Part shown: positions 3,018-17,026 of the stretch, piece after piece
Position numbering within the stretch: the stretch's first letter is position 1
Layout: the number at the start of each line of letters is the position of its first letter
IMG/VR virus record: IMGVR_UViG_2872164251_000001
Reading direction: 5' to 3' (one strand)
Length of the DNA stretch: 46,293 bases
From: a virus
Taxonomy: Duplodnaviria > Heunggongvirae > Uroviricota > Caudoviricetes
The notes under the pieces: model-generated
What the model was told of the DNA's origin: nothing
Seen by the model: only the letters and a program-made list of their open reading frames with translations
Databases searched by the model: none
Translations under genes and position numbers: made by a program

Positions 3018-3908
3018 TCAGGCTGCCAGATCATCGTTTCCGATGGAAGCATAATAAGCTTTTTCTGCTTCTGCCGGAGGGATGTGGCCCAGCCTTTCCA
3101 GCAATCGTCGATTGTTATACCAGTCCACCCACGTTAGTGTGGCCAGTTCCACTTCTGCACGGTTTTTCCAGCTCTTACGGTGTATTACCTCCGCTTTGTA
3201 AAGACCATTGATGCTCTCCGCCATCGCGTTGTCATACGAGTCGCCTGTACTTCCTGTTGATGCCAGTAATCCGGCTTCCTTAAGCCGCTGTGTGTAGGCC
3301 AGCGATACATACTGAGAACCTTTATCACTGTGATGGACCGTGCCGGACGGTCGACGGGCCCATAACGCCTGCTCCAGTGCATCCAGCACGAATGTCGTTT
3401 CCATGGACGATGAGACCCGCCACCCCACGATGTATCCGGCAAACACATCAATGATGAACGCCACATAGACGAAGCCCCTCCATGTGCTGACGTAAGTAAA
3501 ATCAGCCACCCACAGCTGGTCAGGTCGTTCTGCCACGAACTGACGGTTTACGCGGTCGCCTGCGGCAACGGCTTTCCGGCTGATGGTCGTACGGACCTTT
3601 TTACCCCGGAGAACACCGGCAAGTCCCATAACCGCCATGAGACGTGCCACAGTGCATCTGGCCACTCTGATACCTTCCCGTAACAACTGACGCCAGACTT
3701 TACGCACACCGTATACCTTGTGATTTTCATCGTATACGCGCTGTATCTCTTTCTTCAGCCAGTCATCGCGCTGCGCACGGGCACTGCGTTTATCCGGATG
3801 ATGTCGCTGTTGCTGACAGTGGTAATACGTTGACGGGGCAATATGCAGTTCGCTGCATAGCGGTCCGACCCCGTACTGCTCACGCAGCTTATCCAGCAGT
3901 GGCATCAT
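3018..3908 (-). CDS. IS629-like OrfB transposase
   Basis: 296-aa IS3-family DDE transposase ORF overlapping OrfA. Confidence 0.8.
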
Positions 3909-4171
3909 TTTTTCCAGAGGCGGTCGAACTCCGCCTTCGCAAAATAAGCGGAAGCCTGGCGAAGGATATCGTTACTGCGGCGCAGTTCACGATTTTCACG
4001 CTCCAGCTCTTTCAGACGCTGACGTTCAGCGGTGGTGAGCCCTCCATCACCGCCCCCGGTATCCCGCTCATGCTGGCGAACCCAGACACGCAGAGTCTCC
4101 GGCGTACTTTCCAGAACCATACGGACTGCCCGTTGACGGACTTCGGGGGAAAAACGAGTATTTTTAGTCAT
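3905..4171 (-). CDS. IS629-like OrfA (shortened)
   Basis: [37 protein letters not shown]... Confidence 0.75.
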
Positions 4172-12729: not shown

Positions 12730-13233
12730 TTACTGATAGTGTTTTATGTTCAGATAATGCCCGATGACCTTGTCATGCAGCTCCACCGATTTTGAGAACG
12801 ACAGTGACTTCCGTCCCAGCCTTGCCAGATGTTGTCTCAGATTCAGATTATGTCGCTCAATGCGCTGAGTGTAACGCTTGCTGATAACGTGCAGCTTTCC
12901 CTTCAGGCGTGATTCATACAGCGGCCAGCCATCCGTCATCCATACCACGACCTCAAAGGCCGACAGCAGGCTCAGAAGACGCTCCAGTGTGGCCAGAGTG
13001 CGTTCACCGAAGACGTGCGCCACAACCGTCCTCCGTATCCTGTCATACGCGTAAAACAGCCAGCGCTGACGTGATTTAGCACCGACGTAGCCCCAATGTT
13101 CGTCCATTTCAGCGCAGACAATCACATCACTGCCCGGTTGTATGCGCGAGGTTACCGACTGCGGCCTGAGTTTTTTAAGTGACGTAAAACCGTGTTGAGG
13201 CCAACGCCCATAATGCGTGCGCTGGCGCGACAT
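12730..13233 (-). CDS. insB: IS1 InsB (expressed as InsAB' by frameshift)
   Basis: 167-aa ORF typical of IS1 InsB. Confidence 0.85.
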
Positions 13234-13427
13234 CCGACGCCATTCATGGCCATATCAATGATTTTCTGGTGCGTACCGGGCTGAGAGGCGGTGTAAGTGA
13301 ACTGTAGTTGCCATGTTTTACGGCAATGAGAGCAGAGATAGCGCTGATGTCCGGCAGTGCTTTTGCCGTTACGCACCACGCCTTCAGTAGCGGAGCAGGA
13401 AGGACATCTGATGGAAATGGAAGCCAC
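13152..13427 (-). CDS. insA: IS1 InsA
   Basis: [43 protein letters not shown]. Confidence 0.85.
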
Positions 13428-13482
13428 GCAAGCACCTTAAAATCACCATCATACACTAAATCAGTAAGTTGGCAGCATTACC

Positions 13483-13839
13483 AACTGGGGGTAATCCGTA
13501 TTTCTCACGGATTACGGAGTCTATTTTTTCTTCCATTTGTTTATAGTCAGGAAGAAGGCGTTTCAGTGGTGCGGGAATGTCCTGGCAATACGCTTCTGTT
13601 GCATCATGCATTAACGCTTCAAAAGCAAATTCCTGCGGCACCAGCTGGCTGCAAAGAACCGCATGTTGGGCGACGCTGTAGAAGTGCGAAAGATGACCGG
13701 CAAAGCGACAGATATTTGAAAGGGAAACCGCGATATCGTTAATATCGATGTCGTCTTTATTTATCCTGTCATAATAAAAATGCTTCCCGGAAAAAGTTTT
13801 AATAAATGACATTTTGTTCTCCACGTATATGCGCTGCAC
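13483..13839 (-). pseudogene. HD-domain protein (YfdR-like), C-terminally truncated by IS1
   Basis: H..HD signature (RFAGH ... LMHDATEAY); reading frame runs into the IS1 end. Confidence 0.5.
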
Positions 13840-13939: not shown

Positions 13940-14764
13940 TCAGGCGGTGAAAGTACCAATAAAGGTTTCTACTTTGCTGTCCTTGAATTTCTCAACAAGC
14001 AGATCACGAAATTCGTTAGCCATTTCTTCCTGCACCGCCTCCAGCTGAATAATGCGCAGAACCAGTACCGGACGATCGCCAGTGATAATGCTGAGGCGTA
14101 ATTTAAACGGACGTTCTTTCAGACCTTCAAACGGAATGCATTTAAATTCAAATGCCACTGGCATAATGTCTTTGGTCTTCGCTTCGACAGACTCCATCAG
14201 GGAGCGTTTGCCGCTGAAGTCATTATCTTCAAAATCAGCGGTCTGGTTTGCTTCAATCGTGATTTTACGGACCGCCGCAGCCGCTTTTGTTGCCTGAATG
14301 GTGTCACCATTAGCATCAAAGCCCACAAGGTAGTCGGCCCAGTCTTCAATCCATTCTGCCAGTGATTTCTGGGAGTTACGCTCGCCATTAACAGACAACA
14401 GAGCAGAGAACGGTGCTGTCTTTTTCAGTTTGAGAGTGGCGGTGTTATCTGCGTGACCTGGTTCATCAATAGTACCCAGGTTAAGCACACTGACGGCACG
14501 CATATTATCAGCATCGATAAAGCAGCGGGTGCCTTCATCTGCAAGATCTTTAGAATAACGGGTAAAGTCATCGATGCTGGCAGTGGAAAGCGCACCACGG
14601 AAACGGAAGCGATTTAAATTAAATTTTTCCAGATCATGAATGCGGAAATTCTCAGGCAATGCCACAGCATCGGCACCAATCTTACTGATAATTTCATTAA
14701 CACCCTGAGCAGAAATAAGGGCATGGATTTGATTAATTGCGGTTGCGTCTAAGTTCTGAGACAT
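13940..14764 (-). CDS. YfdQ-like (DUF2303) early-left protein
   Basis: 274-aa ORF, size and position match CPS-53 yfdQ as I recall it. Confidence 0.55.
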
Positions 14765-14829: not shown

Positions 14830-15193
14830 TTAATGACCTGCTGCGCGGAGTTTTCCGTCAGGTTCACCGGCAAGAGTCAGTAATTGTCCCTGGTCTTCCT
14901 GCAGAATAGTCAGGCGACCACCGCGATTGACATACATCGGCGTTTCGGTGGTGTCTTCTTCGGAAATTTTCCCGCGGTTAGTCGGGCGAACATATGAGAG
15001 TTTGTGTTTGATTTTCACACGGTTCTCATCAAATGGTTCGATTTCCAGGTTGAGTGAGACCTTACCTTTGGTTTTCGTGTTCATCACACCGGAAGCGACT
15101 TCACTGAGAACTGCGCCGATTTTGGTTTCAAATACGCCGCCGTCCAGCTCCCCGATAAATGCCTGCACATCAGTACTGCGTTCGCTAGCCATT
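14830..15193 (-). CDS. YfdP-like hypothetical early protein
   Basis: MASERSTDVQAFIGELDGG... with GAGGAG RBS; the longer upstream extension in the ORF track looks non-coding. Confidence 0.5.
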
Positions 15194-15629
15194 TTGCTGC
15201 TCCTCATCATATCGACCCTGCAAGGCCGATTAGTTTCTCCACAAAACAGAGAAGAACACCTGCGGTAGCAGCCGCCCGGATGGATTGGGTTATGAGCCCG
15301 TCGTCCGGTGATGCTCTTCTCTGTTTTGTAAAAAGGACGGTACCAGCCGGAAGCAAGGGTACAAACTGGTACCGCCAGGACTACACACAGCATAAAGTTG
15401 TGGTGCCGGGTGCCTCCCGGTGCCTGGCGAAGGTTGCACACCAGACGGGTGGGTATCCACAGAAGGTCGACTGTCAGCCTCAACCTTAACCCGCGTGCGC
15501 TGAGCCGCATTCACCACAACTCTAAGGATTCTCTTTGGTTGAAAATACTTAGCTGTTATGTGCCTGTCTTTTCACCACTTCAGGCTCGGTGGTATCCTTT
15601 TAAGCCCGTATACATAAAAGGAAAATCAA

Positions 15630-15875
15630 ATGACTTTTGATGAAAAAGAACTTGATAATGCAATTAATAAAATCATCGTAACGTCGCTCTTTTCCTGTCT
15701 CAGCGACACTCAGCAGAAACAGTTCTACGAATCGGCTTTCAACATGATCGAGCGTTGTTGTTTCTGCGATGCCGACGAGTTACCTGAAAAAATCAGGAAA
15801 CAGTTGGCTGATGCTCTTCGAGTGCGACTTTCTGACCAATTTTCTGAAATGTGCTCTCCGAATTTGGACAAATAG
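15630..15875 (+). CDS. Hypothetical 81-aa protein, antisense to the early-left operon
   Basis: AGGAAA RBS 7 nt before ATG; 3' end overlaps the convergent 15793-16068 ORF by about 80 bp. Confidence 0.3.
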   Translation: MTFDEKELDNAINKIIVTSLFSCLSDTQQKQFYESAFNMIERCCFCDADELPEKIRKQLADALRVRLSDQFSEMCSPNLDK

Positions 15876-16068
15876 AAAAAGGCCATTTCCATTCAGGGTC
15901 TGATGGAAATACTTCAGCCTGTTCCAAAGCACGGCGTAAAGAGAACACAACTCCAGCCATAATCTGATGTTTCCCATTGGTCCAGCTATCGCCGCTCTGA
16001 TCTACAGGGGCGGCTATGTCGTATGACCAAACGACTTCACAGTTATTGTTTAAAATCTGGACTTTCAT
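15793..16068 (-). CDS. Hypothetical 91-aa protein, first gene downstream of the PL-like promoter
   Basis: AGGTG RBS then ATG (MKVQILNNN...); occupies the N/rex-type position next to cI. Confidence 0.4.
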   Translation of the reverse strand: MKVQILNNNCEVVWSYDIAAPVDQSGDSWTNGKHQIMAGVVFSLRRALEQAEVFPSDPEWKWPFSICPNSESTFQKIGQKVALEEHQPTVS

Positions 16069-16189
16069 TTCATACACCTGCTTTAACATGAGTGCCTAGT
16101 GGCACAACATGACTCAACGAATCATCCTGGACTTCATATGCCCCAGGCGGCTACTTCGTGGGCGTCCTGCCTGTTCGTTGTTTCGCTTG

Positions 16190-16232
16190 GGTACATTATG
16201 TATCCCAAGGGTACATTGTCAAGTATAAAAAA
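16190..16232 (-). promoter_or_regulatory. PL-like early-left promoter with GGTACA-type operator half-sites (OL)
   Basis: Minus strand TTGACA-16 bp-CATAAT; overlapping GGGTACA / TGTATCCC inverted repeat. Confidence 0.45.
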
Positions 16233-16261: not shown

Positions 16262-16936
16262 TTAGGCTTTGATTTTGTATCTTCTTGGTTTTCCTGAGAA
16301 AATCACTGTACCAATTATAGAGCAATTACCGTTGATCTTAATGTAAGGCTCAGGCCAGTTTGGGTTTAACGCTTTGAGATAACGCTGTGTCCCATCTTCT
16401 ATCAACCTTTTGAAGGTGGTTTCGCCTGTATCGTGCATCAATGCAATAACGTCGTCACCGTGGCAGGCAGGTACTTCAGGATCGACAAAAATCATGTCTC
16501 CCGGGCGGTACTCATCAATCATTGAATCACCTATCACCCGCAAGATATAAGTCATTTCCCCACAGGGTACAGGGCAGGGATACGTTTCTGCTGTGCTCAA
16601 ATCAACCTCAGAATATCCAACTTCTTTCCATGCTCCGGCCTGTACCCATGATATGACAGGGACTAATGTGATTTGTTTATTAGTGATTGAAACATCAGGT
16701 TTTTTTGTGATGTTCGTTGTCTGGTGTTCTTGATCGAGCCATCCGACAGGCAGGTCGAAACATTTTTCGATGTGTCGTGCCATGCTGTCACCGATATTTT
16801 TAGTAGCACCATCTCCCATAAACCTGCTGGTCTGGGTTGGCTCGCGATCAATCATAGTGGCAAAGGAAGAATTCCCGCCAACACCATCTCTCAGTTTTCT
16901 GGCGTTAGACCGCCGGATGTCATGGATTGTTTTCAT
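16262..16936 (-). CDS. cI: CI-type prophage repressor (HTH plus S24 LexA-like peptidase domain)
   Basis: Ala-Gly cleavage site (VQAGAW), Ser nucleophile in VIGDSM, divergent from a Cro-like gene. Confidence 0.85.
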   Translation of the reverse strand: MKTIHDIRRSNARKLRDGVGGNSSFATMIDREPTQTSRFMGDGATKNIGDSMARHIEKCFDLPVGWLDQEHQTTNITKKPDVSITNKQITLVPVISWVQAGAWKEVGYSEVDLSTAETYPCPVPCGEMTYILRVIGDSMIDEYRPGDMIFVDPEVPACHGDDVIALMHDTGETTFKRLIEDGTQRYLKALNPNWPEPYIKINGNCSIIGTVIFSGKPRRYKIKA

Positions 16937-17026
16937 AACGAAATTAAAACCCTTGTACCGTTAAGGTACAAGTGTCTTGGAGGTTCATTTCAATCATGTA
17001 ACATGTACACCGGAGGTACATATTGT
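16937..17026. promoter_or_regulatory. OR region: divergent PRM/PR promoters with palindromic operators
   Basis: Perfect 21-bp palindrome CTTGTACC-GTTAA-GGTACAAG at 16952-16972; ATGTAC-N7-GTACAT further right. Confidence 0.6.

Follow-up and report, generated by a model that had tools for sequence, protein, structure and literature searches.

RNA modules on the minus strand of the early-left leader of an SfV/e14-type lambdoid prophage: a promoter-tied leader RNA, an STnc100-like RNA and a candidate tRNA mimic

We analyzed positions 15,194 to 16,232 of the IMG/VR virus record IMGVR_UViG_2872164251_000001 (Caudoviricetes), a stretch of 46,293 nt hereafter called the window. An earlier note on this DNA had flagged the span as unusual, because of its convergent small open reading frames (ORFs) and of a structured non-coding stretch of 435 bp. 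The prophage is a lambdoid one of the SfV/e14 type, and the flagged span is the part of its early-left (PL) operon nearest to the promoter; it is read on the minus strand and consists mainly of RNA-level modules. From the promoter on, these are PL, element C, the gene orf33 with a convergent 81-aa ORF, element A with its terminator, element B, a small hairpin and the yfdP-like gene. The explanation that we favor, with a probability of about one half, takes the segment as a PL leader of RNA modules, in which C would act like the put RNAs, A would be a small RNA and B an excised tRNA mimic.

All the features listed in the earlier note were found where it had placed them, and they go well beyond chance; its reading of them holds in part. 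A structured RNA was one of the possibilities raised there, and it is the one that the data uphold: two minus-strand domains supported by covariation, A and B, lie within the 435-bp stretch, and a third one, C, had gone unnoticed within the flagged span. Folding and covariation across relatives, suggested at the time as a check, gave covarying helices for all three.

Element C (16109-16180, minus strand, 72 nt) was found through the conservation of 16182-16118 in phage ST64B, in a comparison of the PL leader with put RNA. Covariance model R2 recognizes one copy in the window, on the minus strand only, with a score of 90 bits. The element is formed by an outer helix (16179-16174 / 16121-16116) and an inner hairpin (16147-16143 / 16130-16126), and carries the invariant CAGGACGCCCACGAAGUAGCC and GAUGA. 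Minimum-free-energy folding being uninformative for C, covariation was needed: in 34 diverse sequences all 11 tested pairs, belonging to both helices, feature compensatory two-sided changes, and 93.9% of the cells are paired, as compared to no more than 42% in slid controls. The covariation score was 0.74, against 0.19 for shuffles, and none of 500 shuffles reached the observed value.

The element is widespread. BLAST identified it in 51 phage records, among which Citrobacter phiNP, Yersinia YeP2, Pantoea AH07, Salmonella SEN34 and SPN3UB, E. coli mEp237, Pectobacterium ZF40, Aeromonas pAEv1818 and T5-like Providencia phages, while a pattern scan found it in at least 120 viral (IMG/VR) contigs, as 128 distinct versions. 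No Rfam 15 family matched C, and no match was found when its sequence was searched in a collection of papers.

C is closely tied to a promoter. Upstream of it, the consensus scan recovered both features that the earlier note had placed there, namely the intrinsic terminator of the cI gene (16250-16231, minus strand; an 8-bp stem with 4 G-C pairs, followed by a T-run) and a PL-like promoter (16222-16195, minus strand; TTGACA-16-CATAAT, with the -35 at 16222-16217 and the -10 at 16200-16195), which agrees with the consensus at 11 of 12 positions. In the window the distance from the inferred PL start to C is about 8 nt. Among 125 distinct loci, 82 have a good sigma-70 match upstream of C and, in 56 of these 82, 14-17 nt separate the end of the -10 element from the first C helix, which places the transcription start and the beginning of the C RNA no more than about 10 nt apart. 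In all eight annotated phages examined that have a repressor gene C is located 100-390 nt past the end of the repressor gene (about 117 nt in ST64B), the preceding repressors belonging to different families. The first genes 3' of C are unrelated between phages, and thus no conserved N-like partner accompanies it. No C was found in lambda, P22, HK022 and HK639, which use either N or put.

Two occurrences at the margins of this distribution may be mentioned. In the T5-like Providencia phage vB_PreS_PR1 a copy of C (73 bits; L280, 1501-1574) lies in the terminal repeat, that is the pre-early region, far from any lambdoid immunity region. Phage Ayreon (L002; regions 3520-3640 and 3240-3360, minus strand) has the same cI and PL as the window and neither orf33 nor C; a different PL leader is found there, with put-like strings such as CAUGCGUCG and GACAAU. 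The presence of another leader at the position of C fits module replacement.

Element A (15327-15542, minus strand) matches the full RF02076 (STnc100) model with 39.6 bits and E = 1.6e-6. STnc100 has also been described as EcOnc27 or sRNA103, and is related to PasD. In a permissive Rfam scan of the region (E <=10) STnc100 was the only meaningful match, the others (mir-9412, STnc50, rsmX, DicF and hairpin ribozyme) being noise. The likeness extends over all 206 positions of the model. It includes the exact 22-nt core CACCGGGAGGCACCCGGCACCA at 15422-15401, a string which also retrieves the canonical STnc100 members, and the closing helix P1 (15524-15512 / 15405-15393), with UGGUG pairing to CACCA and AAU as J1/2; helix and core are found together in A (UGGUGAAU ... 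CACCGGGAGGCACCCGGCACCA). The multi-hairpin architecture ending in an intrinsic terminator is also shared. The GGTGCC repeats listed in the earlier note are indeed present, at 15402-15425; their reverse complement is CACCGGGAGGCACCCGGCACCA, the core that is best conserved in the STnc100 family. A differs from STnc100 in P2, which reads GCGGC...GCGC, a compensated change, instead of CCCCC...GGGG.

Probing with CACCGGGAGGCACCCGGCACCA selected at least 120 viral contigs, grouped into 37 clusters by single linkage at >=88% identity. Among the matches listed, 19 sequences are close to the window, and the rest share little beyond the core. RNAalifold analysis of 20 cluster representatives, the window included, predicts the closing helix, P2, P4 and P5, with compensatory changes in 12 of 25 pairs; helices P1, P2 and P4 of A are among those with such changes, and the unusual P2 of the window is itself compensated. 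In addition, the strand just after P2 can pair with the P4 loop (AAGGUUG/CAACCUU in the window), and this long-range pairing recurs at the same place, with other sequences, in most clusters. Since the MAFFT alignment is out of register for these columns, matched partners were compared to swapped ones: mean complementarity was 6.7 and 4.6, respectively (Mann-Whitney p = 5e-15, a value which is only indicative, because the clusters are related). The pairing is a probable pseudoknot; it does not appear in the Rfam consensus structure of STnc100.

Judged from these likenesses, A is best described as a diverged STnc100-family RNA in a new location, and we call it a relative rather than a member because its score falls short of the curated threshold. 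Many members of the core set have a sigma-70-like promoter, recognizable by eye, directly upstream, which starts transcription at the closing helix; a consensus scan found no promoter proper to the window copy. Some contigs of the set (among L005-L124) contain two copies, 267-922 nt apart. In Ayreon a further-diverged A-like domain (GUUGUGGUAAUCCGCG...CCACCACAAC) lacks the 22-nt core, and the terminator, B and yfdP are kept. STnc100, EcOnc27 and PasD are Hfq-associated prophage small RNAs, known from Salmonella and pathogenic E. coli and located downstream of Q or stx2B (PMC12711010, PMC12370729, bioRxiv 10.64898/2026.05.13.724894). PasB and PasD were also considered as being the same elements as those of the window, and discarded: PasB lies among structural genes, and PasD, along with STnc100, near Q.

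The 3' end of A is a terminator, made of a G+C-rich hairpin of 9-13 bp (15375-15337) and a U-tract (15336-15330), the hairpin being followed by CUUUUU. In this place the earlier note had seen a cluster of GGTACC/GGGTACA motifs resembling operator half-sites, and had proposed that the 435-bp stretch might hold distal operators, the repressor looping the DNA between OL/OR and 15340-15380. The cluster exists, with two GGTACC hexamers and a single 10-nt identity to OL1, CAAGGGTACA, but does not include a full operator. Its motifs are the two arms of a perfect 9-bp inverted repeat (15338-15346 / 15366-15374), which with the CUUUUU following on the minus strand makes up the stem of the intrinsic terminator. 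The operator consensus TGTAC-N7-GTACA, derived from OR and OL, matches without mismatches at 16954 and 17004, with one at 16199 and with two at 16179; the latter two correspond to a pair of OL operators in direct repeat (16199-16215 and 16179-16195), which overlap PL. In contrast, no match with up to two mismatches is found in 15330-15390. Moreover, related phages hold quite different terminator sequences at the same position, and in Ayreon, which has the same cI, the loop reads CACTTGC where the window has CCCTTGC. Looping through distal operators was rejected on account of the missing operator match and of this variability, and we regard it as extremely improbable. One operator-like site with two mismatches to the consensus, TTTCCCCACAGGGTACA, was noticed within the cI coding sequence (16555-16571).

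Element B (15242-15329, minus strand) follows the terminator and forms a three-way junction supported by covariation, with a stalk, P1, of 19-25 bp, a helix P2 with the tip GGGCUCAUAACCC and a short hairpin, P3. The perfect 14-bp inverted repeat which had first drawn attention to the region is the core of a longer repeat, whose 25-nt arms (15241-15265 / 15305-15329) are 84% complementary. The fold of 15225-15345 on the minus strand has an energy of -52.5 kcal/mol (z = -5.95), and none of 200 shuffles was as stable; for the whole 406-nt leader z is -5.1. Three parts make up the core: the stem that closes it, a long hairpin in which GACGGGCUCAUAA(C/U)CCAAUCCA is invariant, and a second, short hairpin. 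In an alignment of 22 sequences, 93.8% of the cells of its 33 pairs are paired, as opposed to no more than 49% when the partners are slid, and 14 pairs show two-sided changes, a result reached by none of 500 shuffles. Pairs of the G-U type occur, for example a U-G in 20 sequences at one position, and the score of model R1, 99.9 bits for the minus strand, drops to 38 for the plus strand; both observations place the B RNA on the minus strand.

Scanning one genome per species for the pattern of B brought up 23 copies. All fall in genera of Enterobacterales (including Escherichia, Shigella, Citrobacter, Enterobacter, Kosakonia, Mixta, Leclercia, Phytobacter, Raoultella, Erwinia and Pantoea), save one, found in an assembly labelled as Chryseobacterium. 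Among the 5426 complete E. coli genomes 2488 (46%) carry the element, either unannotated or annotated as a hypothetical protein. As for C, neither a comparison with Rfam (15) nor a search of the same collection of papers with its sequence produced a match.

The most distinctive feature of B is its likeness to initiator tRNA. The 14-nt CGGGCUCAUAACCC reproduces, without a change, the anticodon stem-loop of E. coli tRNA-fMet (positions 28-41), the three G-C pairs included; the tRNA sequence was verified against all 5426 E. coli genomes. Three genomic contexts were recognized. In lambdoid early-left leaders B comes after a terminator, with a stalk of 19-25 bp, and is followed by UGGAGAAAC, a small hairpin and a gene which varies. 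In at least 80 contigs B is instead the last unit of a phage tRNA array. In Klebsiella and Raoultella phages these copies resemble the tRNAs of phage arrays in having the usual spacing (5-6 nt), an acceptor-like stem of 6-7 bp, containing G2-C71 and C3-G70, and a 3' N-CCA end (GCCA or ACCA). In the third context the element either has a short stalk and lies between terminators (L228) or has a long stalk and follows a terminator (L150). The array loci (L126, 2509-2579; L145; about 80 IMG/VR loci among L152-L271) belong to arrays downstream of Q, and in the Klebsiella phage ST16-OXA48phi5.2 a distant BLAST match to B comes directly after four tRNA genes downstream of Q.

Small RNAs that RNase P excises from operon leaders are already known in phages, namely the C4 RNAs of P1 and P7 and the CI RNA of P4. 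B resembles them in being a small structured RNA in the leader of the operon that it precedes, and in having tRNA-like features, which suggest excision by tRNA-processing or double-strand-specific nucleases. In contrast, no sequence or model match connects it to C4 or CI, the C4 family being found only in the PR operon of ST64B. This PR operon (L272, 5231-5419) contains isrK and the C4 antisense RNA, both above the Rfam thresholds.

The structures of A and B bear on the coding capacity of the stretch which contains them. The 435 bp without credible coding capacity described earlier correspond to 15195-15629, between the yfdP-like start at 15192 and the 81-aa ORF. Mechanical ORFs of 49-80 aa do exist there, and covarying RNA helices account for most of the stretch (15195-15542). 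It might be supposed that the stretch encodes a small protein, the RNA structures being incidental: RefSeq calls a hypothetical protein in this place, and a 75-aa ORF with a GTG start (15290-15517) is the counterpart of ymfH in the e14 prophage. This ORF, however, starts within helix P1 of A and crosses the terminator into B; substitutions are compensatory in the helices, with G-U pairs among them; length changes in the P3 region of relatives would break the reading frame; and ST64B has no such annotated ORF across the homologous 815 nt. We consider a protein-coding origin of these patterns highly improbable.

Taken together, the three elements suggest the following course of events. Transcripts from PL would have two fates, ending at the terminator after A or passing beyond it. 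Those that stop would yield an STnc100-like small RNA which, by analogy with EcOnc27 and PasD, would bind Hfq (PMC12711010, bioRxiv 10.64898/2026.05.13.724894). Read-through would be promoted by C, acting in cis on the transcribing polymerase in the manner of HK022 put RNA; put RNAs are RNA-only processive antiterminators (PMC9378689). C is the best candidate for this role because no N-like gene was found, because the long untranslated leader contains a terminator, and because the element occupies the position of putL and is tied to the promoter. In transcripts that pass the terminator, RNase III would be likely to cut the 19-25 bp stalk of B. The tRNA-like core would thereby be released as a small stable RNA, and the remaining yfdP mRNA would have a 5' end protected by a hairpin. 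The Klebsiella copies, in which B stands as the last "tRNA" of an array with a 7-bp acceptor-like stem and CCA, are the reason why B is argued to act in trans. By analogy, B would thus be a trans-acting mimic of a CAU-anticodon arm, the common denominator of its contexts being a small RNA that displays that arm. As to what it might address, tRNA-fMet nucleases (VapC/MvpT), MetRS, TilS and the ribosomal P site can be named as a matter of speculation. VapC/MvpT of Shigella and Salmonella cut tRNA-fMet, and B might serve as a decoy for such nucleases, or for another factor reading the CAU arm.

Several observations weigh against this explanation. Both A (39.6 bits) and its ST64B homologue (35.1 bits) score below the RF02076 gathering score of 47 bits, and A sits in the early-left operon by cI and not downstream of Q or stx, like its described relatives. 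B is not recognized as a tRNA: ARAGORN reports none in the window or at any B copy, the Rfam tRNA model gives no match at E <=5, and the element forms a three-way junction rather than a cloverleaf, without D arm and T-loop consensus. In particular, the window copy has the 19-25 bp stalk in place of an acceptor-like stem, and no CCA end; furthermore the anticodon-like loop varies, reading CUCAUUA in ST64B and showing G-U or mismatch variants in a few copies. The minimum-free-energy fold of C is not unusually stable (z = -0.69), a model search found no second copy of C in the PR operon of the window, and the roles of both C and B are ones that we infer from position, conservation and resemblance. 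Finally, phages of the Ayreon type keep the terminator and B and are devoid of C, which is therefore neither the sole way past the terminator nor indispensable.

The comparison of C with put RNA, which suppresses terminators in cis by way of the beta-prime zinc-binding domain of the polymerase, points in both directions. Both RNAs measure roughly 70 nt, and C, like HK022 put, begins no more than about 10 nt from the PL start, no N-like gene having been found in the phages concerned; in both cases terminators which the polymerase must pass lie downstream (PMC9378689). On the other hand, the only sequence they have in common is the string GGAUGA; put is made of two side-by-side stems, while C is a single closed domain, whose outer helix surrounds a conserved strand of 26 nt and one hairpin; and put has a second copy, putR, to which nothing corresponds in C. 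Identity of either C or A with put was discarded after alignment with HK022 putL/putR and HK639 putL, which revealed no real similarity; the STnc100 and C models likewise give no match on these three sequences.

C could therefore be a 5'-end stabilizer, a small regulatory RNA or a protein-binding site, read-through being partial or due to an unrecognized protein. Its distance from put in sequence and architecture, the single copy, the persistence of the terminator in phages lacking C and the occurrence in the terminal repeat of T5-like Providencia phages, a region where we know of no antitermination, all speak for such a role. It is less easily reconciled with the very short and fixed distance between C and its promoter, with the location 3' of a left-operon promoter in every temperate phage examined, none of which has an annotated N, with the absence of C from the N- and put-using phages tested and with the long untranslated, terminator-containing leader that lies 3' of it. 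We find this alternative rather doubtful, and retain C as a putative antitermination RNA.

For B, the alternative is an element acting in cis only, in which an RNase III stalk splits the small RNA from the mRNA and sets the expression of yfdP. Cis-acting sites of this kind are known, such as the RNase III site in the lambda N leader and the sib site. Each of the 23 lambdoid-type genomic copies of B stands directly after a terminator and ahead of the gene that opens the following block, the conserved UGGAGAAAC and the hairpin in the 5' untranslated region coming next; the P1 of B, of 19-25 bp, reaches into the terminator U-tract. The same core is found, however, without any such gene, at the end of tRNA arrays, with acceptor-like stem and CCA, and also between terminators (L228). 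The 22-nt invariant tip and the internal loop are conserved beyond the needs of a processing stalk, and the downstream gene varies (yfdP, MKLPKF... or MDKERL...). An action of B in cis only seems to us unlikely. Pairing of the B loop with the yfdP start or Shine-Dalgarno sequence was looked for by eye, and dropped as inconsistent between loci.

We propose tentatively, and as a joint claim, that C represents a second class of RNA-only processive antiterminator, unrelated to put and present in more than 100 temperate and some T5-like phages, and that B is a trans-acting phage mimic of the anticodon arm of initiator tRNA; the two together may well prove too much. Both elements vary on kinds of RNA already known, C on the phage leader RNAs and B on the tRNA-like RNAs, and the mechanisms given for them are proposals. 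They are widespread and strongly covarying, and lack an Rfam family in lineages as well studied as SfV, ST64B, e14 and the Klebsiella prophages, where annotations turn part of the region into a hypothetical protein (in K-12, YmfH). If the proposal is correct, a promoter-tied leader RNA would be the answer to how early-left genes are expressed through terminators in SfV/ST64B-type phages, and C would extend RNA-mediated antitermination beyond put. B, found in both operon leaders and tRNA arrays, would provide a link to tRNA-targeting defence and phage counter-defence.

The prophage e14 of E. coli K-12 (L388, from the K-12-type strain CIT, 1630-2830) contains the whole chain, with the ymfK repressor and PL. 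C is found at 1717-1789 (72 bits), ymfJ and ymfI are the convergent pair and the sieB-type junction, described below, is present. A is decayed, and so is B (2700-2787, 65 bits), with a mutated loop; xisE and intE follow. The annotated ymfH ORF (2514-2825) coincides exactly with A, terminator and B. An overexpressed ymfH clone has been reported to trigger RcaT, the toxin of retron-Sen2 (Bobonis et al., bioRxiv 10.1101/2020.06.22.160242), and we take this report as a lead toward B as a trans-acting mimic. As the full chain survives, slightly decayed, in K-12, existing RNA data from K-12 and Salmonella can be re-read in this light.

In ST64B, whose copy of A also matches STnc100, such data are available. 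In Salmonella D23580 the gene covering B and yfdP reaches 292 transcripts per million (TPM) in late stationary phase, as compared to 4 TPM for the next gene; peroxide or nitric-oxide shock raises it to 1085-1276 TPM, and the PL-proximal small RNA STnc1310 is induced along with it (PMC7067206, Table S5). STnc1310 itself was examined as a possible homologue of A or B and set aside: by its D23580 coordinates it maps to a separate, terminator-ended RNA of 74 nt (L272, 2954-2881), located between PL and the A-like domain of ST64B, with no counterpart in the window.

Between C and A lie the two small ORFs, which are arranged as described in the earlier note. On the minus strand orf33 (15793-16089; phrog_3195), the first early-left gene, is 98 aa long from its first ATG, and probably 91 aa, with the ATG at 16068 as its start; this ATG has the better ribosome-binding site, with an AGGTG Shine-Dalgarno sequence, and is where the only truly divergent homologue starts. 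The convergent 81-aa ORF (15630-15875, plus strand; phrog_3311) has its own ribosome-binding site, AAGGA, and overlaps orf33 by 83 bp (15793-15875), close to the 80 bp originally estimated. Neither has a Pfam or PADLOC match, and orf33 is not N-like, as it has no Pfam match and its N-terminus is not arginine-rich, boxA/boxB not having been searched for systematically.

For the conservation of the two ORFs, named in the earlier note as decisive, the evidence is weak. A divergent homologue of orf33, P0040, with 64% identity, starts with MKV and shows protein-like substitutions over the first ~75 aligned residues. Otherwise, relatives of both ORFs are almost all from E. coli, and most of the divergence consists of frameshift or indel alleles of the same DNA. 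For the 81-aa ORF only near-identical or indel variants were found, and its coding status is thus not supported by divergence. Both belong to narrow, lineage-restricted PHROG families, and the 81-aa ORF can be regarded as a candidate accessory gene expressed by the prophage.

Its position was correctly described as being of the sieB type. A 35-nt string (15559-15593) is shared, at 94% identity, with lambda, P22, HK620, VT1-Sakai and many others, always shortly upstream of sieB; in lambda and P22, whose sieB faces the N gene, the distance is about 70 nt. Here the string precedes the 81-aa ORF, which therefore occupies the sieB slot, the PL transcript being antisense to it. On the PL-strand RNA it forms the hairpin ACCACCGAGCCUGAAGUGGU, and it looks like a conserved module junction or a leader or promoter piece of the sieB slot. 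As with sieB/sas of P22 and lambda, an opposite-strand gene comes right after the first PL gene, and the ORF is fully antisense to the PL transcript; in contrast, the 81-aa product has no Pfam, PHROG or PADLOC link to SieB, and the 83-bp overlap distinguishes the present pair from the sieB arrangement. The sas RNA of P22, as it is cited in PMC7067206, is a precedent for an antisense PL transcript over sieB. The antisense regulatory pair considered in the earlier note, here the PL transcript against the 81-aa ORF, would fit this architecture and is plausible by analogy with sas.

The whole segment 15150-16260 is 99.3% identical to the Shigella flexneri phage SfV, and close copies are present in 2899 of 5426 complete E. 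coli genomes. Its assignment to the beginning of the early-left operon follows from its neighbors: a cI-like, LexA-type repressor gene with a Peptidase_S24 domain (16262-16936, minus strand), with cro-like and CII-like genes to its right; the yfdP-like gene, of 120 aa (14830-15192, minus strand; RefSeq annotation), with the ribosome-binding site GAGGAG at 15205-15200; and, next after it, a yfdQ/DUF2303 gene (13940-14764). Between B and the yfdP ribosome-binding site folding predicts a small hairpin, GGCCUUGCAGGGUC (15214-15227, minus strand), with a loop of UGCA type; in most of the related loci read, a hairpin with other stem sequences and a (U/G)GCA-type loop is found in its place.

An Rfam scan of the window at gathering thresholds gave a single match, far from the region discussed here: the ALIL pseudoknot (RF01497, 120 bits; 3834-3950, minus strand), the frameshift signal of an IS3-family insertion sequence. 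Closer to it, ORFs of the IS1 type, insA and insB (12730-13427 and 13456-13839), adjoin a truncated yfdR-like gene (HD-domain 5'-nucleotidase), and the early-left operon of this prophage is therefore broken by an insertion sequence.

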